This document shows positions 5,474 through 35,773 of a DNA stretch of 64,000 nucleotides, piece after piece. This DNA comes from a phage. Each line of letters starts with the position of its first letter. Within the stretch, counting starts at the first letter, position 1. The stretch lies in the sequence record MZ956763.1; one strand, given 5' to 3'. A program made the translations under genes and the position numbers. The notes under the pieces were generated by a model that saw only the letters and a program-made list of their open reading frames with translations, was not told the DNA's origin and searched no databases.

Positions 5474-7840
5474 ATGCGCATGGTAAACGACCACGCAGAA
5501 GTGATTAAGAGTTCAACTTCTTTAGAGACGTCTCAAGCACAGATTACAATGACACCTGAAATGTTCAGCCTTTTGAGTTCAGGTGTATACACATTCAAAG
5601 AAAGGGCAGTGATTCGTGAACTGTCATGTAACGCAGTAGATGCTCAAAAAGAAGCTGGAAAAGAGAACATCCCATTCCATGTGCATTTACCTACTCGTTT
5701 TGAGCCTTACTTTGAAGTTCGTGATTTTGGAACTGGTTTAACCCATGACAAAGTAATGAGTTTGTATCTGAACTACGGGGCTTCTACGAAGAATGACTCT
5801 AATGATTACATTGGTGCAATGGGTATCGGCTCAAAATCCCCATTTGCAATTGCTCAGTCATTCACAGTATCTAGCTATGTTGATGGTGTTGCTAATAAGT
5901 ACTCTGTTTACCTTGAGAATGGTATCCCTCAAGTAACTAAGCTTACTACCAACCAAACAAATGAACCCAATGGTTTAGCTGTACGTGTAGCAGTTGCTGA
6001 CCATCGTATTTCAAAGTTCTTTGAAGAGGCTGGTCACGTATACTCATACTTTGCTGTAAAACCAGAAAGTAACATTGTATATGATGATGTATTAGCAGAT
6101 ATGAATGTCATTGCCCGTGAAGAGGGTGTTTATGATGCTATGATTCATAAGCAAAGCTGGCGTTCTAGTGGCAACAGGACAGAGTTTAATGTGGTGATGG
6201 GTAATATTGCCTACCCAGTGAACATGGAAGCATTACTTGGTGATGATTTCTTCAAAGTCTTGCCAGAGTTTTTCCGTAGGAGCGTAGACCTTGTAAACAT
6301 CTACATGCCTATTGGTTCAGTGGCTATTGCAGCTTCTCGTGAAGCATTGCAGATGAATGACACGACAAAAAATGTTATCATTGAGGCTACTAAAAAGATA
6401 ACTGAAGCCATTACAAAGGATGTTATCAAGAAAGTTAATAGCCAACCTACACTCATGGATGCTGCACAGGCTTATGCTGAGTTACGTTTGAACTCACGAG
6501 AGATGTTTAATGCTGTGTGTCCAAAGCTAGAGTGGGGAGGCGTTAAGCTTGATTCTCTGGAAGAAGAATTACTAAATATTCGTCGTGGAATTATCTACGC
6601 AGAAGACGGCTCAGTCATTTATGAACGTGACGGTAAAGGTAATATTAAGGTTGATAGGAACGGGAACAATATCCCTAAAGTAGATTATCTTTATGACCCA
6701 GTTGCTTATGTCAAGTTCAACTCTTTAGAGAGTAAGATTCGTGCAACATCGCTTTCCTACACTCAAGAGGCAAGTATGTTCAATATCTTTGGCGCAATGC
6801 GTAAAAGCCAAATTGAACAGTTTTTGTTTGTTATCAATGACCGTCGCAATAAAAATGGTACTGAGAAGACTGTAGGACGCAATCAAATCTTGCGTGGTGC
6901 ATGTCGAGACTATGCCAGTGAGTCAAATCTGTTTCACAGATACAACGGTATTGTCTTTGTATTCTCTACTGAGAAAGAGTTAGACGACTTAATCAATCTG
7001 CACAAACTTGATAAAAGCTTGTTAAAGATTGTGAAGATGTCTGATAAGGAACACCATTATCAGCGTAAAGAAGCTGTAAGAGGTGTTGTAAAACTCTGGA
7101 AAGCTGTTCCAGCAGAAGGTGTAGCTTCATACACAGAGGTGTCAGAAGACTTAGACACAATTGAAGAGCCTCAACTTTATATCAAGGCAGTAGGTGATAC
7201 TGTTGATGGTGAATGTTTTTGCTCATCTCCAGATGATGTAGCTAAGTCAGTTGCCAATGTCATTGGAAAGACAGTCTATGTTTTCCGAAAAGCAAATTGG
7301 AAAAAGATACCAGAAGACTGGATTGAAGTAGATGAGAAGCTCTTGAACGACAGCTTAACTGATGTTCACTGGATTAACCATAACAGATATATGACACGTA
7401 TCTACATGAATGGTGTCCTTGACCTCACAAGCAGTTGGATTATTGCCAGAAACTTTACGTTCAATAACAAGAAGATTTCTCGTGGCTATTGCTATTCACG
7501 AGACACAAACAAAACTATCTTCTTAGAAGGTAATGAAGATGCTGTTGATGCAATGTTTGGTAAAATCCAATACGTTGCTGCACCGTTTGCATACACTTAC
7601 ACTATTAGCGTGTTGCAAGATTTGAAAAGTTGTCTTGATAATGATACAAAGCTTTACAAGAAAATTAAGAAAGCTGGTGACCGCATGGTCATTAAGGTGA
7701 CAAACTACCTTTCAAAAAGAAAACAAGAAAACTTCTTGCTTTCTCATTTAGATTGGAATAAAGTGTCACCCATCGAAGTGAGTAAGTTCTTAGGCTTTGA
7801 TGTGAAGTGTGTTCCAGAAGGGACTACAATTTACGATTAA
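5474..7840 (+). CDS. rIIA: rIIA-like protein with N-terminal GHKL (HATPase_c) ATPase domain
   Basis: 788 aa; Bergerat-fold motifs ELSCNAVDA (ExxxNxxDA), DFGTG, GAMGIGSKS near N-terminus; size/architecture like T4 rIIA. Confidence 0.5.
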   Translation: MRMVNDHAEVIKSSTSLETSQAQITMTPEMFSLLSSGVYTFKERAVIRELSCNAVDAQKEAGKENIPFHVHLPTRFEPYFEVRDFGTGLTHDKVMSLYLNYGASTKNDSNDYIGAMGIGSKSPFAIAQSFTVSSYVDGVANKYSVYLENGIPQVTKLTTNQTNEPNGLAVRVAVADHRISKFFEEAGHVYSYFAVKPESNIVYDDVLADMNVIAREEGVYDAMIHKQSWRSSGNRTEFNVVMGNIAYPVNMEALLGDDFFKVLPEFFRRSVDLVNIYMPIGSVAIAASREALQMNDTTKNVIIEATKKITEAITKDVIKKVNSQPTLMDAAQAYAELRLNSREMFNAVCPKLEWGGVKLDSLEEELLNIRRGIIYAEDGSVIYERDGKGNIKVDRNGNNIPKVDYLYDPVAYVKFNSLESKIRATSLSYTQEASMFNIFGAMRKSQIEQFLFVINDRRNKNGTEKTVGRNQILRGACRDYASESNLFHRYNGIVFVFSTEKELDDLINLHKLDKSLLKIVKMSDKEHHYQRKEAVRGVVKLWKAVPAEGVASYTEVSEDLDTIEEPQLYIKAVGDTVDGECFCSSPDDVAKSVANVIGKTVYVFRKANWKKIPEDWIEVDEKLLNDSLTDVHWINHNRYMTRIYMNGVLDLTSSWIIARNFTFNNKKISRGYCYSRDTNKTIFLEGNEDAVDAMFGKIQYVAAPFAYTYTISVLQDLKSCLDNDTKLYKKIKKAGDRMVIKVTNYLSKRKQENFLLSHLDWNKVSPIEVSKFLGFDVKCVPEGTTIYD

Positions 7841-29178: not shown

Positions 29179-30594
29179 ATGAGCGAGTTATTTAAACATG
29201 CGCACCTTCATGCAGGTCGAACTGAAAATGGTGCTGTAAACCATACTTCATCAATGTCTGCTCTGGTAGACTTCTACAAAGCTGCTGGTTCAAGCCGTAG
29301 CAATGTAGAAATCTTACCAGACCTGTTCTACAAAGCTTTGCATGAGGATGTTGATGTTGCAGTTCGTATTTTACTGCATATGCGAGATGTACGAGAAGGT
29401 ATGGGTGAGCGTAAAGCCTTCAGGACTGTTTTGCTTCAAGCAATTGAAGATAAAGTTTTAGAGTCTACACAGGTTCTTCGCATTATGGATAAGATTGCAG
29501 AACTTGGTCGTTTTGATGACTTCAAAATCTTCGTAGGTACTCGCTTCGAGACAGATGCCTTCAAACATTTAGAAGCAGCATTACTAGACCCTGCAACAGC
29601 AGGTTTGGCAGCTAAGTGGTTGCCACGAGTCAAACCACGTCACAAACAGTTTGTAAAACGTTTCTGCAAGTTTGCCAACTTGAGTGAGAAAGAGTACCGC
29701 ACACTGTTGTCTGCACTATCTGATACAGTTGAGCAAAAAATCTCTGCTAATGAGTTTGGCAAGATTGACTACAGCAAGATTCCTTCACTTGCTGCTGCAC
29801 GTTACCAAAAACTGTTTAACCGTAAAGATGGAGAACGCTACAAAGCTTACATTGAGTCTTTATCAAAAGGTGAGACTAAGATTAACGCTGGTGCTGTTTA
29901 CCCATACGATGTGATTAAATCTGTCAAGCATGGTAATGCAGATGTTGCTAATGAGCAGTGGAAAGCACTACCAAACTGGATGGCAGAAGGTGAAAACATC
30001 TTGTGTATGACTGATGTTTCAAGCTCAATGTCTTGGGTGAATTTTGGCTCCATTACTGCTCTGGATATTGGTGTATCACTTGCATTGTATGTGGCAGAAC
30101 GCAATACAGGTTGCTTTAAGAATGAGTTGATGGTTTATTCAACAAACCCTCACTTCATCGAACTTAGTGGTGATTTACGAAACCGCCATCGTCAGGTGAT
30201 GCGACATGTTGAATATGGTTCAACTAACTTACAAGCAGCTTTTGACCGTATTCTTGAGACAGGTAAAAGAAACAACTTGACTCAGAAAGATATGCCAAGT
30301 AAGCTTATCATCTTCTCCGATATGGAGTTCAATCAGGTTGATGGAGCTAACGGTCGTACAAACTTTGAAGCAATTCAGAGTAAGTACAAGAAAGCTGGAT
30401 ACGAAATGCCACAACTGGTATTCTGGTACTTAGCAAACCGTAATGGTACTTGCGAAGTGTCTGTTAAGGATAACGGTGTAGCAATGGTATCTGGTTTCTC
30501 TCCAGCCACTTTAAAAGCTCTGCTTGGTGGTGAGAAGTTTGACCCAATCAGCGTAATGCTCAAAGCAGTAATGATTGACCGCTATATCTGGTAA
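29179..30594 (+). CDS. vWA-domain protein, candidate Ro60/TROVE-like (Rsr-like) RNA-binding protein
   Basis: 471 aa; MIDAS-like DxSxS (MTDVSSSMS) with downstream T and D (IIFSDMEF); ~270-aa helical N-terminal region; placed immediately upstream of tRNA/structured-RNA cluster. Confidence 0.5.
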   Translation: MSELFKHAHLHAGRTENGAVNHTSSMSALVDFYKAAGSSRSNVEILPDLFYKALHEDVDVAVRILLHMRDVREGMGERKAFRTVLLQAIEDKVLESTQVLRIMDKIAELGRFDDFKIFVGTRFETDAFKHLEAALLDPATAGLAAKWLPRVKPRHKQFVKRFCKFANLSEKEYRTLLSALSDTVEQKISANEFGKIDYSKIPSLAAARYQKLFNRKDGERYKAYIESLSKGETKINAGAVYPYDVIKSVKHGNADVANEQWKALPNWMAEGENILCMTDVSSSMSWVNFGSITALDIGVSLALYVAERNTGCFKNELMVYSTNPHFIELSGDLRNRHRQVMRHVEYGSTNLQAAFDRILETGKRNNLTQKDMPSKLIIFSDMEFNQVDGANGRTNFEAIQSKYKKAGYEMPQLVFWYLANRNGTCEVSVKDNGVAMVSGFSPATLKALLGGEKFDPISVMLKAVMIDRYIW

Positions 30595-30759: not shown

Positions 30760-30836
30760 CTCTGTTTAGCTCAGCTTGGTAGAGCGTTCCGTTTGGGGCG
30801 GTAAGGCCGGAGGTTCAAGTCCTCCAACAGAGACCA
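30760..30836 (+). tRNA. tRNA-Pro (anticodon TGG)
   Basis: acceptor CTCTGTT/AACAGAG, T-arm GGAGG-TTCAAGT-CCTCC, anticodon loop TTTGGGG, CCA encoded. Confidence 0.8.
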
Positions 30837-30843
30837 AATTAAT

Positions 30844-30921
30844 GTTCCAGTAGACAAAATGGTAAAGTCACCACTCTTTCAAAGTGGATATCTGAGGGTT
30901 CAAATCCCTTCTGGAACGCCA
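30844..30921 (+). tRNA. tRNA-Glu (anticodon TTC)
   Basis: acceptor GTTCCAG/CTGGAAC, anticodon arm CCACT-CTTTCAA-AGTGG, T-loop TTCAAAT. Confidence 0.8.
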
Positions 30922-30926
30922 GTTTT

Positions 30927-31003
30927 GACAGAAGACCAATTACAGCAAACTTAATCTTATTCATCTGAAGGTAAATCGGACAAAGAAGAGATTTGGTCTG
31001 GTC
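30927..31003 (+). ncRNA. structured element A (conserved ACAGAAGACC...GGTCTGG terminal stem)
   Basis: 5' GACAGAAGACCAATTACAGCAA, 3' ATTTGGTCTGGTC; family members at 31095, 31576, 31663. Confidence 0.45.
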
Positions 31004-31013
31004 ATTAAGAATT

Positions 31014-31089
31014 GCGGGTATAGAGAAAGGGCGTCTCACATGTCTCATTAGCATGGTATCGGCAGGTTCGACTCCTGCACCCGCCTCCA
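31014..31089 (+). tRNA. tRNA-Met (anticodon CAT)
   Basis: D-stem GAGA/TCTC, anticodon arm CATGT-CTCATTA-GCATG, T-arm GCAGG-TTCGACT-CCTGC; acceptor pairing imperfect by eye. Confidence 0.65.
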
Positions 31090-31094
31090 AATTT

Positions 31095-31160
31095 ACAGAA
31101 GACCGTTTACAGCAATATTTATTAAATTTTTAGCGGAAAAATTGAAAGATACGGTCTGGT
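31095..31160 (+). ncRNA. structured element B (ACAGAAGACCG...CGGTCTGG stem)
   Basis: same terminal stem motif and TTACAGCAA box as element A. Confidence 0.45.
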
Positions 31161-31172
31161 AATACTAAACAT

Positions 31173-31249
31173 GGTTAGGAAGCACATAAGGTATGTGCGG
31201 TCGCCTGTTAAGCGAATGGCACAGGGTTCGAATCCCTGACTAACCGCCA
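31173..31249 (+). tRNA. tRNA-Asn (anticodon GTT)
   Basis: acceptor GGTTAGG/ACTAACC, D-stem GCAC/GTGC, loop CTGTTAA, T-arm CAGGG-TTCGAAT-CCCTG. Confidence 0.8.
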
Positions 31250-31318
31250 AATTTAGGAGAGAAGCGATTGCTCACCGATTTGTAAGGTGCAAGTCCTTAG
31301 CCTGAATAGAAATTAAAT

Positions 31319-31405
31319 GTGTCGTTATCCCGTAGATGGTAGCGGTGGGGACTGTAAATCCCTTGTCATTGAGACTCGGTAGGTTCGACTCCTACACGGC
31401 ACACC
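31319..31405 (+). tRNA. tRNA-Tyr (anticodon GTA), class II
   Basis: acceptor GTGTCGT/ACGGCAC, anticodon arm GGGGA-CTGTAAA-TCCCT, long variable arm, T-loop TTCGACT. Confidence 0.75.
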
Positions 31406-31411
31406 AATAAA

Positions 31412-31489
31412 GGCTATGTAGTTTAATAGGGTTAAAATACTCCCCTGTCACGGGAGATGATGTGAGTTCAAGTCTCATCGTAGCCGCCA
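31412..31489 (+). tRNA. tRNA-Asp (anticodon GTC)
   Basis: acceptor GGCTATG/CGTAGCC, anticodon arm CTCCC-CTGTCAC-GGGAG, T-loop TTCAAGT. Confidence 0.8.
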
Positions 31490-31575
31490 AATTATAATAA
31501 GTATTTCAAAATGATGTTTTGAGAGGGCTATTTAGCCCCTCCCTTAAAGAGTTCTTACGAGTATTCTTTAAAGGA

Positions 31576-31651
31576 GCAGAAGACCAAATACAGCAAGTTA
31601 CTTAAAATTTCAAGCCAATTTAATTTTGAAAAATTTAAAACTTGGTCTGGC
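31576..31651 (+). ncRNA. structured element C (GCAGAAGACCAAATACAGCAA...TTGGTCTGG)
   Basis: same terminal stem motif family. Confidence 0.45.
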
Positions 31652-31662
31652 TCAACAAATTT

Positions 31663-31794
31663 ACAGAAGACCGTTTACAGCAAAACTTAAACAATCTATT
31701 TCTCGGTAAAGAAAAGGAGAAGGTTCGATTCCTTCACTCGGCAGATGTCGAGTTGGTGTAATGGTAGCACTTAAGATGGTAAACAACGGTCTGG
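31663..31794 (+). ncRNA. structured element D with internal permuted tRNA-like domain (candidate YrlA-like Y RNA)
   Basis: terminal stem ACAGAAGACCGTTT/AAACAACGGTCTGG; internal order T-arm (GAAGG-TTCGATT-CCTTC), acceptor 3' strand ACTCGGC, loop AGAT, acceptor 5' strand GTCGAGT, D-arm GTGTAATGGTAGCAC. Confidence 0.5.
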
Positions 31795-31938
31795 TAATTA
31801 TCTTTGTAGATAAGTTATTAAGCTTACCTGTGAGTATGCGACCACAAAGGGTGAAAGGGTAAATTCTAGATTTAAACCCAAAAAGGCACATCGCTACAGA
31901 CCTTAAGCAAGTCTGGGTAGCTTATCTACAAAGATAAT
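31795..31938 (+). repeat. 19-bp perfect inverted repeat flanking a 106-nt segment
   Basis: AATTATCTTTGTAGATAAG at 31795-31813 and exact reverse complement CTTATCTACAAAGATAATT at 31920-31938. Confidence 0.85.
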
Positions 31939-31943
31939 TTAAT

Positions 31944-32019
31944 GGAAGTGTAGCAGAATGGTGATGCGGCAGACTTTTAATCTGACAGGCGATGGGTTCG
32001 AATCCCTCCACTTCTACCA
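31944..32019 (+). tRNA. tRNA-Lys (anticodon TTT)
   Basis: acceptor GGAAGTG/CACTTCT, anticodon arm GCAGA-CTTTTAA-TCTGA, T-loop TTCGAAT; T-stem weak by eye. Confidence 0.65.
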
Positions 32020-32023
32020 AAAT

Positions 32024-32100
32024 GGTTCAGTCGCAGATAAGGTAATGCAAGGGTTTCATAAGCCCTATGAATGTGGGTTCGATTCCCATCTGAACCTCCA
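32024..32100 (+). tRNA. tRNA with CAT anticodon (Met, fMet or Ile-lysidine)
   Basis: acceptor GGTTCAG/CTGAACC, anticodon arm AGGGT-TTCATAA-GCCCT, T-arm GTGGG-TTCGATT-CCCAT. Confidence 0.7.
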
Positions 32101-32102
32101 AT

Positions 32103-32177
32103 TGTGGGTTAGCATAAATGGTAATGCAAACGGCTGATAACCGTTAGAAGAGGGTTCGATACCCTCACCTACAACCA
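32103..32177 (+). tRNA. tRNA-Ile (anticodon GAT)
   Basis: acceptor TGTGGGT/ACCTACA, D-stem GCAT/ATGC, anticodon arm AACGG-CTGATAA-CCGTT, T-loop TTCGATA. Confidence 0.8.
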
Positions 32178-32192
32178 ATTTCAATAGAGTTG

Positions 32193-32221
32193 TTGACATT
32201 GAGATGTGACTACTTTATAGT
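32193..32221 (+). promoter_or_regulatory. sigma70-like promoter TTGACA-17-TATAGT inside tRNA cluster
   Basis: consensus -35, good -10; followed by ~290 nt without tRNA. Confidence 0.55.
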
Positions 32222-32514
32222 AACTAAAATACTTCACAATATGTATAATTCAAACACCAATACATGAGCGTTAGACGTAACACAATGTGGGGAAATTTGT
32301 TGTACATATTCTGAATAGTTTTCGTTGCGTAGCGTCTATTTTGCAAATTTAAAATAAATGCAAACGACAATGTTTTTCTGGCAGTAGCTTGATAGGCTAA
32401 ACACCAGTGAGGTCTTCCAATCCCTCATCAAAGAATTTGGCGTACTCGCCCACGGTATGATTAATAAGGTGGGCATCTTTAAGGGCTTTCTAAGAGAGTC
32501 TTTAAAGATAATTA

Positions 32515-32596
32515 CGGGGCGTATCTCAGCGGTCTTCTAAACCGCCGTTAACCGAGTAAGTGGAGTATGCGGGTTCGAGTCCTGCCGCCTCGACCA
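32515..32596 (+). tRNA. atypical tRNA-like gene, possible tRNA-Arg (anticodon TCT)
   Basis: acceptor CGGGGCG/CGCCTCG + A + CCA, T-arm GCGGG-TTCGAGT-CCTGC, arm GCGGT-CTTCTAA-ACCGC; no canonical D-arm found by eye, 23-nt segment before T-arm. Confidence 0.45.
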
Positions 32597-32738
32597 ATTT
32601 AGTTAGCAGATTACTTAGACGACCTAAGCGGGTCTTCCTGTAGGGAGGTGGTCTGTATCTCATGTTTTCCAGAACATGTAAATAATCTGAGAAGGGGCTT
32701 TACAGTGTTGAGATAATACGGTAAGCTTCGAATTATAG

Positions 32739-32822
32739 TGTGGGACGATGTTAAGACTCTAAGGCATGAGCAACGGCCTCCAAAACCGTTTCAAAGGGGT
32801 TCAACTCCTCCGTCCCATGCCA
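32739..32822 (+). tRNA. atypical tRNA, possible tRNA-Trp (anticodon CCA)
   Basis: acceptor GTGGGAC/GTCCCAT + G + CCA, anticodon arm ACGGC-CTCCAAA-ACCGT, T-loop TTCAACT; D-region ~8 nt longer than canonical. Confidence 0.5.
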
Positions 32823-32835
32823 AAGTCTTATTAGG

Positions 32836-32923
32836 GGTAGGTAGCGGCTAATGGCAGCCAAACAGTCTTGAAAACTGTTGCCACTGTAGAGATACGGTGA
32901 GGGTTCGACTCCTTTACTTACCG
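32836..32923 (+). tRNA. tRNA-Ser (anticodon TGA), class II
   Basis: acceptor GGTAGGT/ACTTACC, anticodon arm ACAGT-CTTGAAA-ACTGT, 20-nt variable arm, T-arm GAGGG-TTCGACT-CCTTT. Confidence 0.7.
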
Positions 32924-33180
32924 CCTAATAAGATTTAAAGCCAAGCTTCATTCGGATGTCGCTTTGGTATCCCGCGTGTATTGTCGTACACACTGATAAA
33001 ACACCTAGTAGGTGTCACGGAGAAGAGATAATATCAAGCTCTCCAAAGGTTCTAGTCACCGGATTAAACAAGACTATGCAAAGACCTTTTTAGGTCTTTT
33101 TAGAGGGCTTCTAAGGTTATTACAGCTTGTTGTGGAACCTTGTTGCTTAGGTTCTTAGAAGTTCTCTAAAAAGATTTAAT

Positions 33181-33258
33181 GGGAGATTGACGGTAATTGG
33201 TAAACCTACCATCCTTAGAAGTTGGTGTTTGAGGGTTCGAATCCCTTGTCTCCTACCA
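33181..33258 (+). tRNA. tRNA with TAG anticodon (Leu by anticodon) but short variable arm
   Basis: acceptor GGGAGAT/GTCTCCT + A + CCA, anticodon arm CCATC-CTTAGAA-GTTGG, T-arm GAGGG-TTCGAAT-CCCTT, variable ~5 nt. Confidence 0.55.
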
Positions 33259-33265
33259 AATTAAT

Positions 33266-33341
33266 GCAGGTGTAGCAAAATGGTTATGCGGCTGACTCTT
33301 AATCAGTAAGACGATGGGTTCAATTCCCTCCACCTGTACCA
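33266..33341 (+). tRNA. tRNA-Lys (anticodon CTT)
   Basis: paralog of 31944 tRNA; acceptor GCAGGTG/CACCTGT, anticodon arm GCTGA-CTCTTAA-TCAGT. Confidence 0.65.
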
Positions 33342-33347
33342 GACATT

Positions 33348-33423
33348 GGGGTCATAGTTTATATGGTTAAAATTCGAGTTTTGCAAACTTGGGAACTGAG
33401 TTCAATTCTCAGTGACTCCACCA
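33348..33423 (+). tRNA. tRNA-Ala (anticodon TGC)
   Basis: acceptor GGGGTCA/TGACTCC, anticodon arm CGAGT-TTTGCAA-ACTTG, T-arm CTGAG-TTCAATT-CTCAG. Confidence 0.8.
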
Positions 33424-33429
33424 ATTAGT

Positions 33430-33504
33430 GCATCCATAGTTTAAACGGGAAAATTACAGTCTTCCAAACTGAGGTTGAGGGTTCGATTCCCTCTGGATGC
33501 TCCA
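33430..33504 (+). tRNA. tRNA-Gly (anticodon TCC)
   Basis: acceptor GCATCCA/TGGATGC, anticodon loop CTTCCAA, T-arm GAGGG-TTCGATT-CCCTC. Confidence 0.8.
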
Positions 33505-33511
33505 AATTAAT

Positions 33512-33587
33512 GCTCCTATCGTATAATAGGCTATTACGGTTGCCTTGTAAGCAACTTATCAGGGTTCGAATCCTTGTGGGAGCACCA
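33512..33587 (+). tRNA. tRNA-Thr (anticodon TGT)
   Basis: acceptor GCTCCTA/TGGGAGC, anticodon arm GTTGC-CTTGTAA-GCAAC, T-loop TTCGAAT. Confidence 0.8.
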
Positions 33588-33590
33588 ATT

Positions 33591-33677
33591 CAGAGGTCAA
33601 GTGAAAGACCGCTGGTGTCAACTGAAGACCGTAACAAATTCCACGGAGTTGAGTTAGCGGCACAACTTCAGACCTCT
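33591..33677 (+). ncRNA. structured element E (CAGAGGTC...GACCTCT stem, internal AAGACCG boxes)
   Basis: inverted repeat AGAGGTC/GACCTCT enclosing ~70 nt containing two copies of the GAAGACCG box. Confidence 0.35.
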
Positions 33678-33681
33678 TTCA

Positions 33682-33757
33682 CACTCGCTTAGTTTATATG
33701 GTAAAACACCACCCTTACAAGATGAAGAAAAAGGTTCAAGTCCTTTAGTGAGTACCA
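33682..33757 (+). tRNA. tRNA-like gene, possibly tRNA-Val (TAC) or pseudogene
   Basis: acceptor ACTCGCT/AGTGAGT + A + CCA, D-stem GTTT/AAAC, T-arm AAAGG-TTCAAGT-CCTTT; anticodon-region CCACC-CTTACAA-GATGA does not pair. Confidence 0.4.
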
Positions 33758-33758
33758 T

Positions 33759-33836
33759 GTTCCAGTATCCCAATTGGCAGAGGATGCAAGCTCAAACCTT
33801 GTATTAGTGACGGTTCGAATCCGTCTTGGAACACCA
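33759..33836 (+). tRNA. tRNA with CAA anticodon (Leu by anticodon) but short variable arm
   Basis: acceptor GTTCCAG/TTGGAAC + A + CCA, anticodon arm GCAAG-CTCAAAC-CTTGT, T-arm GACGG-TTCGAAT-CCGTC, variable 6 nt. Confidence 0.6.
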
Positions 33837-33855
33837 ATTTTAAGAGGCTATTTAG

Positions 33856-34413
33856 ATGAGATATTTGAAGTATGCTTCATGGATTTTCCTAGCTTTACTA
33901 GAGCCATTTGCAGCAACCCTATCAGTCATCTTAGCACCTTTCGTAGTTCCATTCTACAGTGAGAAGAAAGGACACCTACCTTTTGGATTCAGATGGATGG
34001 AGACCTATGACAACCCAATTGATGGTGATGAAGGTCACGTTAAAAGATGGGCTAAGATTAGAAAGATTGGTAAGCTGGGTGTCTACATGCAGAGAGTTGG
34101 ATGGCTCTGGAGAAACAAAGCTTATAACTTCTCTTACCATGTATTAGGAAGAGATGTAAAAGATGTTACTAAGTGGAAAGGTAATATCAACGTAAGTTCT
34201 GACCCTGAAGATAATCAGACAGGTTATCTCCTAATGTGGAACAACAATGCTTGGGGATTATTCGCTTTTATTCCGTCAATTAAAATCTTTGGTAAACAGT
34301 TTTACTGGAGAATTTATGTTGGATGGAAACTAAAAAGTGTTGTCCCAGAAGAAAGAGCATTCTCAAGGGAAAGAGTTATGTTGGCATTCTTTATTCATCC
34401 ACTGAGAAAGTAA
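33856..34413 (+). CDS. hypothetical membrane-associated protein encoded inside tRNA cluster
   Basis: ORF 185 aa, hydrophobic N-terminus (WIFLALLEPFAATLSVILAPFVVPF), Trp/Lys-rich. Confidence 0.45.
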   Translation: MRYLKYASWIFLALLEPFAATLSVILAPFVVPFYSEKKGHLPFGFRWMETYDNPIDGDEGHVKRWAKIRKIGKLGVYMQRVGWLWRNKAYNFSYHVLGRDVKDVTKWKGNINVSSDPEDNQTGYLLMWNNNAWGLFAFIPSIKIFGKQFYWRIYVGWKLKSVVPEERAFSRERVMLAFFIHPLRK

Positions 34414-34421
34414 AGATTTAA

Positions 34422-34497
34422 AGGGGATTAGTTTACAAGGTTAAAACCTCGGTCTTTGAAATCGAAGAAGTTGGTTCAATTCCAACATCCCCAGCCA
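34422..34497 (+). tRNA. tRNA-Gln (anticodon TTG)
   Basis: D-stem GTTT/AAAC, anticodon arm TCGGT-CTTTGAA-ATCGA, T-arm GTTGG-TTCAATT-CCAAC, 3' ATCCCCA-G-CCA. Confidence 0.7.
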
Positions 34498-34499
34498 AT

Positions 34500-34579
34500 G
34501 CTCCATTACTCCAATTGGCAGAGAGGCCAGACTTAAAATCTGTGTTATGTATCGGTTCGAATCCGATATGGAGTACCAA
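34500..34579 (+). tRNA. tRNA with TAA anticodon (Leu by anticodon) but short variable arm
   Basis: acceptor GCTCCAT/ATGGAGT + A + CCA, anticodon arm CCAGA-CTTAAAA-TCTGT, T-arm ATCGG-TTCGAAT-CCGAT. Confidence 0.6.
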
Positions 34580-34584
34580 TTTTA

Positions 34585-34660
34585 GCGGTATAGCATAATT
34601 GGCAATGCAACAGTCTCTGAAGCTGTCCTATTAAGGTTCAAATCCTTATACCGCTGCCAC
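34585..34660 (+). tRNA. tRNA-Gln (anticodon CTG)
   Basis: acceptor AGCGGTA/TACCGCT, D-stem GCAT/ATGC, anticodon arm ACAGT-CTCTGAA-GCTGT, T-arm TAAGG-TTCAAAT-CCTTA. Confidence 0.7.
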
Positions 34661-34691
34661 TTCTAAGGGTTCTTACGAGAGTCCTTAAATG

Positions 34692-34767
34692 TGGCCTTAT
34701 CATAAATGGTAATGACCCATGCTGTGAACATGGTCTATACGGGTTCAAATCCCGTAGGTCACCCCAA
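34692..34767 (+). tRNA. tRNA-His (anticodon GTG)
   Basis: acceptor GTGGCCT/AGGTCAC, D-stem TCAT/ATGA, anticodon arm CCATG-CTGTGAA-CATGG, T-arm ACGGG-TTCAAAT-CCCGT. Confidence 0.8.
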
Positions 34768-34772
34768 TTTAT

Positions 34773-34849
34773 AGTCCAAGTAGCTTATATGGTTAAAGCG
34801 CGTGTCTGAAAAACATGAGAAGAGGGTTCAAATCCCACTGGACTACCAA
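34773..34849 (+). tRNA. tRNA-Phe (anticodon GAA)
   Basis: acceptor TAGTCCA/TGGACTA, anticodon arm CGTGT-CTGAAAA-ACATG, T-loop TTCAAAT; 3' CCA not fully encoded. Confidence 0.7.
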
Positions 34850-34864
34850 TTTCAAAGGTGCTTA

Positions 34865-35599
34865 ATGAAAGAGATGACAGAACAAGGTAAGGAGATTTTT
34901 AATCTCTTAAAAACCGGTAAAGGGTTTTCTAACCCACTTATTACTGGTGCAGCAGTTCTCGGTGGAACCGTAGCTGCCTCTACATCACTTGTAAGCTCTA
35001 TTAGCTCTGTAACAGACCCTACAATGAATGAGAAACTTGTTGCTGCTGGACTTACAACAGTCCTTCTAAACAGCTTTACAACAAGCCTGACAAGCACTAC
35101 AGCAACTACTAAGACCCTAACAGACTATGGTCAAAAGTCTATTGATGAGTTTTCATCACGTATGCAGGTAGCAAAGGGATACTCCAATGTTATGGGTGCA
35201 GCAGGAGAACAAGTTGGTTGTACACCGTTCAGTGGTATTATGGGTGTTGCTACAGAATATGGTCAAAAAGCTATTGATACGATTAACAGTACACTAGAGA
35301 GTGTTAACGATGTATTAAGTGACTTACAAGACGCTATTGACAAGGGTCTTGATACTGTTTCTGATTTAGCTAACCAAGCTGTCAGTAAGATTAATGAAGG
35401 TATCTCAAAGATTACAGCTTATGCAGATGAAGTTGTGCAGATGATTGAAGAAGAAGCTGCCCTTATTGCAGAGTACCTTAAAACGAATATCAATGGGTTC
35501 TTAGCAGGTATCTTACCAGACTGGTTTGATGATGCTTGTAAAACTGGTGTGATTGACACTATTGCAACACCAGAAATGAAGAACGCATTACAGAAATAA
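34865..35599 (+). CDS. hypothetical Ser/Thr/Ala-rich protein (between tRNA-Phe and tRNA-Ser)
   Basis: start moved to ATG 34865 (MKEMTEQG..) because ORF-track start lies inside tRNA-Phe; 244 aa. Confidence 0.5.
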   Translation: MKEMTEQGKEIFNLLKTGKGFSNPLITGAAVLGGTVAASTSLVSSISSVTDPTMNEKLVAAGLTTVLLNSFTTSLTSTTATTKTLTDYGQKSIDEFSSRMQVAKGYSNVMGAAGEQVGCTPFSGIMGVATEYGQKAIDTINSTLESVNDVLSDLQDAIDKGLDTVSDLANQAVSKINEGISKITAYADEVVQMIEEEAALIAEYLKTNINGFLAGILPDWFDDACKTGVIDTIATPEMKNALQK

Positions 35600-35600
35600 T

Positions 35601-35693
35601 GGAAGATTAACCCTAAAAGGTAAGGGAGCAGTTTGCTAAACTGCCAGTAGCTGAGAAATCGGTGTACCAGTTCAAGTCTGGTATCTTCCTCCA
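35601..35693 (+). tRNA. tRNA-Ser (anticodon GCT), class II
   Basis: acceptor GGAAGAT/ATCTTCC + T + CCA, anticodon arm GCAGT-TTGCTAA-ACTGC, 21-nt variable arm, T-arm ACCAG-TTCAAGT-CTGGT. Confidence 0.8.
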
Positions 35694-35697
35694 ATTT

Positions 35698-35773
35698 GAA
35701 TCCGTGACAGAAATGGCTATGTGCCTGTCTGCAAAACAGGTTTATAAGGGTTCGAGTCCCTTCGGATTCTCCA
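35698..35773 (+). tRNA. tRNA-Cys (anticodon GCA)
   Basis: acceptor GAATCCG/CGGATTC + T + CCA, anticodon arm CCTGT-CTGCAAA-ACAGG, T-arm AAGGG-TTCGAGT-CCCTT. Confidence 0.8.

Follow-up and report, generated by a model that had tools for sequence, protein, structure and literature searches.

The window analysed here, 64,000 nucleotides (nt) of the phage sequence record MZ956763.1, comes from a Felix O1-like phage (Felixounavirus) and carries, at 32515-32596 on the plus strand, a gene of 79 nt (82 nt with its CCA) that has the acceptor stem, anticodon arm and T arm of a transfer RNA (tRNA). In this gene and in every member of the family to which it belongs, a short helix, here called helix P, takes the usual 5' strand of the D stem and pairs it with a strand beyond the anticodon arm, on its 3' side; the normal place of the D loop is thus taken by the anticodon arm and the fold is not a cloverleaf. 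We consider it probable that the gene is a functional phage tRNA-Arg(UCU) with a rewired core, its function as a tRNA being what we infer from the sequence.

An earlier note on this DNA had described a tRNA-like gene at this position and the parts that it listed are all present (Table 1): the seven-pair acceptor stem, with one G.U, followed by A-CCA, the canonical T arm GCGGG-TTCGAGT-CCTGC, the Arg-TCT hairpin GCGGT-CTTCTAA-ACCGC and, exact to the nucleotide, the 7-nt connector TATCTCA (32522-28) before that hairpin and the 23 nt (32546-68) that separate it from the T arm. The acceptor has a 7-bp stem, a discriminator base and a 3' CCA; the anticodon arm has a 5-bp stem and a 7-nt loop with U33 and a purine at 37, the loop reading C/U-U-NNN-A-A/C in all 68 relatives described below; and the T arm has a 5-bp stem and a 7-nt loop of the form UUCRANY. 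A canonical D arm, that is, a local hairpin with a stem of 3-4 bp and a loop of 7-11 nt, is absent, the space being 7 nt. ARAGORN makes no call for the gene and calls a member in 3 of about 100 family loci, a silence that confirms the absence of a recognisable D arm noted earlier. The Rfam tRNA model (RF00005) matches at a marginal 31.7 bits against a gathering threshold of 29 (E = 0.011 for the whole window, 9.7e-5 in a local search), and the fit requires deletion of the D arm (15 model positions in cmscan) and a 20-nt insertion in the variable region. At a permissive threshold tRNA is the sole Rfam family found here, a 10.5-bit match to permuted transfer-messenger RNA being noise.

Table 1. 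Parts of the rewired Arg gene, and the promoter-like site upstream of it, in positions of the window
Feature	Position	Strand	Remarks
Acceptor stem, 5' strand CGGGGCG	32515..32521	+	7/7 pairs with 32586-92, one G.U; double compensatory changes in all 7 pairs (68 relatives)
J1, UAU (proposed U8, A9, U10)	32522..32524	+	UAU in 68/68 relatives
Helix P, 5' strand CUC	32525..32527	+	Partner 32554-56; corresponds to D-stem positions 11-13
A opposite C32553	32528	+	Adds a fourth layer, mostly not Watson-Crick, to helix P
Anticodon arm, stem GCGGU/ACCGC, loop CUUCUAA	32529..32545	+	Anticodon UCU at 32536-38; double changes in all 5 pairs
8-nt bulge CGUUAACC between anticodon stem and helix P	32546..32553	+	C-R/U-U-Y-A-A and two variable bases in 68/68; unconstrained by the scan pattern
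Helix P, 3' strand GAG	32554..32556	+	Corresponds to D-stem positions 22-24
J2 joiner UAAGUGGAGUAU, D-loop-like	32557..32568	+	Proposed A14 A15 = 32558-59, G18 G19 = 32562-63, A20 = 32564, U48 = 32568
T arm GCGGG/UUCGAGU/CCUGC	32569..32585	+	Canonical T loop; double changes in 3/5 pairs
Acceptor 3' strand CGCCUCG (32586-92), A73 (32593), encoded CCA (32594-96)	32586..32596	+	Discriminator G 33, A 29, U 5, C 1 and CCA encoded in 46/68 relatives
Promoter-like site TTGACA-17-TATAGT	32193..32221	+	11/12 against the sigma-70 consensus; about 295 nt upstream of the rewired gene

Relatives of the gene are numerous. A 102-nt query spanning it matched 282 phage records at 60-100% identity, and in blastn the element is 83-90% identical in phages that otherwise share little: Klebsiella phages of about 110 kb (Roth50, Spivey) and about 145 kb (KNP2, Iguana), the jumbo Asteriusvirus (Ecwhy_1, SP27), Justusliebigvirus and phi92-like coliphages and one Serratia phage, with a Streptomyces Karimacvirus copy at 81% identity. 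Most GenBank records either have no annotation for the element or list it as tRNA-OTHER or tRNA-Undet. The IMG/VR collection was scanned twice, with patterns taken from two halves of the gene that do not overlap; the scans and the GenBank loci yielded 68 distinct sequences, gathered by exact match to the patterns and then filtered on the pairing of the acceptor, anticodon and T helices. Helix P was not used as a filter. One scan left helix P, J1, the bulge and the anticodon unconstrained, and the other left J2 unconstrained (for J1, free in the scan pattern, the family regular expression,.AT, frees the first base alone). In the scan that left J2 out, the joiner reads UAA-N(N)-GGAGUAU in 39 of 40 variants; the exception is locus L016, where a copy on the minus strand (L016:6111-6183) is an intact member of the family as far as GCG-UAAU and then runs into unrelated AT-rich sequence. 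The 3'-half pattern finds no match at that locus for the remaining part of the gene, and this copy is shortened or interrupted.

In the 68-sequence alignment the four-helix structure is paired in 98% of base-pair cells, and 17 of its 20 pairs show double changes; its covariation score is 0.82, against 0.20 for shuffled alignments (0/500) and 0.10-0.17 for slid controls. Helix P, in which CUC (32525-27) and GAG (32554-56) enclose the entire anticodon arm, is paired in 68 of 68 sequences through nine Watson-Crick combinations (CUC/GAG 37, CGC/GCG 11, CAC/GUG 4, CAU/AUG 4, CAG/CUG 4, CGG/CCG 3, CGU/ACG 3, CUU/AAG 1 and CCC/GGG 1). Its two variable pairs have undergone 30 and 15 double changes, with a mutual information of 1.50 and 0.98 bits, which places them fourth and tenth when all column pairs are compared. 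The adjoining columns 14 and 39 (A32528 and C32553) also vary together: A.C 37, C.A 12, C-G 7, A-U 5 and U.G 4. That helix P exists we regard as very likely, with the caveat that it is 3-4 layers long, as in a D stem. Two other pairings of the same region do not behave in this way. The local hairpin CCG/UGG, taken from the energy minimum, is 76% paired, the level of shuffled sequences, and without double changes, and was rejected; the pairing of the acceptor 5' strand with CGCC, put forward in the earlier note as an alternative, is 39% paired, again the shuffle level, and was rejected as well; the CGCCGT segment concerned lies at 32543-48, not at 32545-32550. The note's option of an armless or otherwise atypical tRNA agrees with the evidence as to 'atypical' and is imprecise as to 'armless', since the connector CUC pairs at long range, and with covariation, with GAG; the 23 nt before the T arm resolve into the 8-nt bulge, the 3' strand of helix P and the 12-nt invariant D-loop-like joiner.

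A covariance model of the family (R1), built from the 68 sequences with the window gene included, has the layout acc7 - UAU - 3-bp helix P - N - anticodon arm - bulge CRUYAANN - P 3' strand - UAAN(N)GGAGUAU - T arm - acc7, into which the window gene fits. It gives that gene 95.7 bits, against at most 32.6 for the canonical tRNAs of the window. This bears on the proposal that the gene is a decaying tRNA-Arg pseudogene, its D arm deleted and its variable region carrying an insertion, as might be suspected from the failure of ARAGORN, the marginal Rfam score and the missing or noncommittal GenBank annotation. Such decay would have to have left, beside that R1 score, four helices with compensatory changes in Felixounavirus, Asteriusvirus, Justusliebigvirus, Karimacvirus, two groups of Klebsiella phages and many uncultured phages, together with invariant single-stranded segments; the compensatory changes and the conservation across unrelated phages exclude a pseudogene, raised as an option in the earlier note, for all practical purposes. 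We find it extremely improbable, too, that wrong boundaries, or an intervening sequence excised from the precursor, mask a canonical cloverleaf here. Insert-bearing tRNA genes are known in these phages (the Trp-like gene at 32740-32822 of the window and a 'tRNA-OTHER' of Roth50 with a 20-nt insert, both described below), but the covarying partner of the 5' D-stem strand is 3' of the anticodon arm in every member, a D hairpin forms in no register and none is restored by removing any contiguous segment from the sequence when it is read by eye. Conservation in the gene is highest in the 'extra' segments, the opposite of the pattern of an intron, and a standard cloverleaf at shifted boundaries, which the earlier note had named as the result that would overturn it, was not found by ARAGORN, Rfam or scoring with R1.

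Several features of the rewired gene point to an arginine tRNA. In the scan that left the anticodon free, the 68 relatives have UCU (64), UCG (2) or CCU (2), all of them arginine anticodons with an invariant C35. The bacterial arginine identity set comprises A/G73, A20, C35 and U/G36, with A20 as the main determinant for arginyl-tRNA synthetase (ArgRS) (PMC9976931). Position 73 is a purine in 62 of the 68 relatives (G 33, A 29, U 5, C 1), C35 with U/G36 is present in all of them, as is GG-A within J2, and CCA is encoded in 46. The A that follows GG in the joiner (A32564) is invariant in the 68, is U in the isoleucine sister family described below and G in a single copy at locus L455; its equivalence in space to A20 is what the proposed fold would predict.

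The codon usage and the tRNA complement of the window are consistent with a decoding role. With 43.7% of Arg codons (17.7 per 1000), AGA is the arginine codon that the window uses most, AGG accounting for 9%; both are among the rarest codons of E. coli and Salmonella. A cluster at 30760-35773, all on the same strand as the rewired gene, holds 24 tRNAs called by ARAGORN, covering 18 amino acids, and neither an Arg nor a Trp tRNA is among these 24 calls. In phage EcoM2, which is nearly identical, tRNA-Leu(CAA) is followed by a canonical tRNA-Arg(ACG) (L001:5468-5543), a gene that is absent from the window at about 33837-33856, so that the rewired gene is the sole Arg tRNA of the window. In multi-tRNA loci elsewhere the nearby canonical Arg tRNAs almost always have other anticodons, mostly ACG; a rewired UCG copy (L064) is accompanied by ARAGORN-called UCU and ACG, and a rewired CCU copy (L096) by ACG, CCG and UCU, where the UCU call may be a divergent rewired copy. 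In many uncultured phages the element is the only tRNA-like gene within 4-14 kb, and tRNA-Arg(UCU) is frequent as a lone phage tRNA. Position in the cluster tells a similar story: in Mooglevirus Sf18 and Pectobacterium phage Wc4-1, both Ounavirinae, the Trp-like gene has a canonical tRNA-Arg(UCU) on its upstream side (in Sf18 it is the nearest annotated tRNA upstream), and Felixounavirus has the rewired gene in that slot.

We propose that the RNA would be transcribed along with the tRNA cluster and processed by RNase P, the CCA being already encoded, that host ArgRS would charge it through the GG-A motif, C35/U36 and A73, and that it would read AGA and probably AGG. On the 5' side, U-A-U-C-U-C-A may be likened to U8 A9 (G10) C11 U12 C13 A14, and helix P would then serve as a D stem with the pairs C11-G24, U12-A23 and C13-G22 and an additional U10.U25. 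Stacked in this way, the five pairs of the anticodon stem, the A.C layer, the three pairs of P and U.U would make ten layers, as do the five pairs, 26.44 and four pairs of a normal tRNA. The joiner, leading from P into the T stem, would stand in for both the D loop and the variable loop, with A14 contacting U8, A15 contacting U48, G18 and G19 meeting the T loop and A20 presented to ArgRS, which would preserve both the L shape and the set of arginine identity elements. Past its first U the joiner fits the D-loop consensus A14 R15 Y16 Y17 G18 G19, followed by A20, and its final U could be the Y48 partner of A15. The balance of this evidence tilts somewhat towards the joiner being a D-loop mimic, a reading supported by the isoleucine sister family, which has GG-U where U20 is an isoleucine determinant, and by the L455 copy, which has GGG and A73.

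That sister family was found through intermediate R1 matches and follow-up searches and comprises at least 120 IMG/VR loci with 65 distinct sequences. Its layout, acc7-UAU-NCC-C-anticodon arm-NGAAA-GGN-UAA..GGU.ACAU-T arm, shares with the Arg family the acceptor, UAU, the 3-bp helix, one base, the anticodon arm, a bulge, the 3' strand of the helix, a UAA..GG.. joiner ending in AU and the T arm; it differs in having isoleucine anticodons, a 5-nt bulge (NGAAA), GGU (U20) in place of GGA, an invariant A73 and a T loop of UUCAA... Among the matches listed, the anticodons are UAU (53) and GAU (11), A73 is present in 65/65, J1 is UAU in 63/65 although the regular expression left it free, and the free pair of helix P co-varies (C-G 50, A-U 7, U-A 6). 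U20 and A73 are identity elements for isoleucine (PMC9976931). Members occur in the crAss-like phage cr130_1 (L215, about 395-475) and Streptomyces phage Karimac (L216, about 394-472), unannotated in both of these GenBank records, at L064:5506-5582, at L218-L336 and in many environmental contigs. Further variants are Arg-ACG copies with bulges of 3-5 nt (L058:2689-2763 and Rhizobium phage RHph_I1_18, L217, about 395-480), a divergent rewired UCU copy (L096:13348-13426), a rewired Ile copy with an 11-nt bulge (L388, about 7575-7660) and the L455 copy on the minus strand, an Arg-type scaffold with anticodon UAU in which GGA has become GGG beside A73. When the architecture was scanned for with GG followed by C or G, chance matches and canonical tRNAs made up most of the result, beside a small number of informative Ile variants. 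A sequence-light structural descriptor, applied to 2.85 Mb of loci, a sample biased towards the two families, found Arg and Ile anticodons only, no third amino acid and no canonical tRNA as a false positive. Most copies have anticodons for the rare A-ending codons AGA and AUA, and ACG, UCG and GAU, which read CGN and AUY, also occur.

From these observations we would put forward, as a proposition for and against which the case is evenly divided, that tailed phages carry a virus-specific alternative tRNA fold, with the anticodon arm inside the D stem and a D-loop mimic beside the T arm, which serves at least two amino acids (Arg and Ile), is charged by host enzymes and is active on bacterial ribosomes. 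A separate set of some fifty loci, beside L426, L431, L343 and L351, carries a tRNA-Ile(UAU) with a normal D arm and a 21-nt variable region, GCAACAGAUAAUUGGCYRAU, that holds a second D-loop-like motif; these genes might mark an intermediate stage in the evolution of the rewired fold.

Several observations weigh against the rewired tRNA as we interpret it. The exact-match patterns and the pairing filter inflate the conservation and pairing of the acceptor, anticodon and T helices. RNAalifold alone recovers these three helices and misses helix P, whose case therefore rests on the covariation counts and the mutual information, and the fold of the single sequence is on a par with shuffles (z = 0.04). 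The bases of the D-loop mimic are invariant and hence outside the reach of covariation tests, and a canonical Arg-UCU gene and a rewired UCU gene occur together in two loci, L031 and L114.

The taxonomic distribution of the family bears on a rival to the decoding role. The 3'-half pattern was run on 185,579 bacterial and archaeal genomes, one per species, and gave 91 matches, four of which are family members, each on a metagenome-assembled contig; phage-type genes are present on three of the four contigs (a PurZ-like enzyme, HNH endonucleases and phrog_5268), and no cultured cellular genome in that collection carries the fold. This essential restriction to phages, with about 100 loci in the viral collection against four in the species genomes, would suit a tRNA mimic or decoy which mainly absorbs, inhibits or evades a host defence directed at tRNA, such as an anticodon nuclease, a colicin-D-like enzyme or a Schlafen/PARIS-type tRNase, and which takes no part in decoding. 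Phage tRNAs have been proposed as an answer to host tRNases, with colicin D, which targets tRNA-Arg, named among them (PMC10264068), and a body unlike that of host tRNA-Arg could alter recognition by a nuclease. A decoy, however, has no need to switch between UCU, UCG and CCU in a manner complementary to nearby canonical Arg tRNAs, nor of A/G73, an intact acceptor stem and CCA, and would not be expected in the slot of the canonical Arg-UCU gene of related genera. We therefore think it unlikely that the RNA is a decoy; nuclease resistance and translation are compatible, and resistance may explain why the fold exists and not what the RNA does. For the rewired tRNA itself, escape from tRNA-targeting nucleases is one candidate reason for the persistence of the wiring, altered mechanics of the decoding hinge being the other. 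In the Hirsh suppressor decoding is reportedly tuned at the hinge of D stem and anticodon stem. Work on 4-bp anticodon stems likewise has this hinge tuning decoding (PMC13092985).

The genes that surround family members were compared within 3 kb of the 68 representative loci and no conserved protein partner was found, the maximum being 6/68, which suggests that the rewired tRNA works with the host machinery. HNH endonucleases and DUF2828-like proteins do recur near family members. The latter bear on the suggestion of a tRNA-derived RNA that is regulatory, an option of the earlier note, or structural, for example a primer, a T-box-like ligand or a Y-RNA-like partner of a DUF2828 protein. A 471-aa protein with DUF2828 and DUF7788 domains, labelled 'RNA-binding protein' in the annotation of phage EcoM2, is encoded directly upstream of the tRNA cluster (29179-30594, plus strand) and would be a candidate for such a partner. 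The association is weak, since 5 of the 68 loci have a DUF2828-like protein at a distance of 3 kb or less; no Y-RNA family is matched in Rfam, the ends of the RNA form a tRNA acceptor stem with CCA, and an amino-acid-specific anticodon and identity features would be left unexplained. Nothing in the analysis came out in support of a regulatory RNA and we consider one very unlikely.

HNH genes lie directly 3' of the rewired tRNA in phage tootiki (L460:956-1354; also in Felix O1) and in Klebsiella phage Roth50 (L002:1598-2107), and are absent from the window. The tootiki and Roth50 proteins were compared as possible homologues and are not homologous. The traffic of homing endonucleases may help to explain how a tRNA gene can be 83-90% identical across unrelated phages.

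Within the window, whose sequence in this region is 99-100% identical to that of many Felixounavirus genomes, the rewired gene sits in a 650-nt gap between tRNA-Ile(GAU) and tRNA-Ser(UGA). Of the 24 tRNA genes around it at least 23 encode CCA, Ser(UGA) being the possible exception. The promoter-like site in the gap (Table 1) is, by its match to the consensus, a possible transcription start for this part of the cluster, in a region that has no overall excess of sigma-70-like sites. In the interval 32193-32514 (plus strand) this site is followed by about 290 nt, up to the rewired gene, with no plus-strand open reading frame of 30 aa or more and no Rfam match, a stretch which could be a leader or another small RNA.

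A second odd and unannotated gene follows at 32740-32822 (plus strand) and is apparently a tRNA-Trp(CCA), which would supply the phage's missing Trp tRNA. It has the acceptor GUGGGAC/GUCCCAU, G73 and CCA, a C31.A39 mismatch in the anticodon stem and an 8-nt insert, UGUUAAGA, between position 9 and a 3-bp D stem, CUC-UAAGGCAU-GAG; ARAGORN misses it and the Rfam tRNA-Sec model gives it 23 bits. The gene is kept in Ounavirinae with compensatory changes (CUC/GAG to CAC/GUG, ACGG/CCGU to UAAG/CUUA and a T-stem G-C to U-A), and its block 'YGUUAANN - stem strand - UAAG.GG' is similar to the Arg gene's bulge, 3' strand of helix P and joiner. The 'tRNA-OTHER' of Klebsiella phage Roth50 (L002:120-204) has a normal acceptor, D arm and T arm, and in the place of its anticodon loop a 20-nt insert with a hairpin of its own, GGGGA-GCUA-UCCCC.

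These are widespread natural phage genes, apparently for non-cloverleaf tRNAs that rely on unmodified host machinery, and if this is true they would be the first tRNAs in nature to work in bacterial translation without a cloverleaf. Should the RNAs be charged and decode, ArgRS, isoleucyl-tRNA synthetase, RNase P, EF-Tu and the ribosome must tolerate another connectivity of the tRNA core, and the family could serve as a natural experiment on the importance of individual tertiary contacts in the D region. It would provide a new scaffold for the engineering of orthogonal translation and pose a concrete question in the arms race around defence systems that cleave tRNA. Since tRNA finders miss such genes, phage tRNA repertoires would need correction: in the window phage the Arg tRNA would no longer be missing, nor, through the neighbouring odd gene, the Trp tRNA. 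Cultivable phages of E. coli and Salmonella carry the gene, which makes direct testing feasible.

Canonical tRNA-Arg(UCU), of which E. coli argU is an example, offers the closest comparison. With the version in Shigella phage Sf18 (L339:64-140) the rewired gene has in common the acceptor stem, T arm, CCA, the loop CUUCUAA and A/G73; the Sf18 anticodon arm, ACGGU-CUUCUAA-ACCGU, recurs identically in some family members, the canonical Arg D loop and the rewired joiner both contain the 'GGA' motif, and the two genes take the same place in the cluster in related phages. Unlike the canonical tRNA, the rewired gene has no D hairpin, finds the partner of the 5' D-stem strand after the anticodon arm, places a D-loop-like sequence between the 3' strand of P and the T stem, possesses the 8-nt conserved bulge and is longer (79 nt without CCA against about 74).

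A 2024 paper describes all known bacterial tRNAs as cloverleaves (PMC11551756); neither it nor accounts of non-canonical tRNAs (PMC7609411) and tRNA identity (PMC9976931) mention the rewired fold, and a search of full-text literature found no description of the architecture, though subscription journals were thinly covered and an earlier description is possible. The D-armless mitochondrial tRNAs, metazoan tRNA-Ser(AGY) and nematode tRNA-Ser, likewise have no D hairpin and a short 5' connector; they are shrunken forms with an unpaired replacement loop, often degenerate T loops and dedicated partner proteins (PMC7609411, PMC4013460). The window gene does not belong with them, its connector CUC being paired with GAG and its length 82 nt with CCA: the rewired RNA is longer than normal, has a canonical T loop, a GG motif and a covarying long-range helix, and must use ordinary bacterial enzymes and ribosomes. 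Class II tRNAs (Leu, Ser and bacterial Tyr) share a long stretch between anticodon arm and T stem, but the 23 nt of the rewired gene form no hairpin of their own and pair back to the 5' connector, in RNAs with Arg or Ile anticodons and no normal D arm. Finally, tRNA-Sec, tRNA-Pyl and the allo-tRNAs, with 8/4 or 9/3 acceptor/T branches, are also conserved departures from the cloverleaf which serve translation (PMC5389517, PMC7609411); these alter the lengths of helices and keep the order of the four arms, whereas the rewired fold alters the connectivity of the arms themselves.

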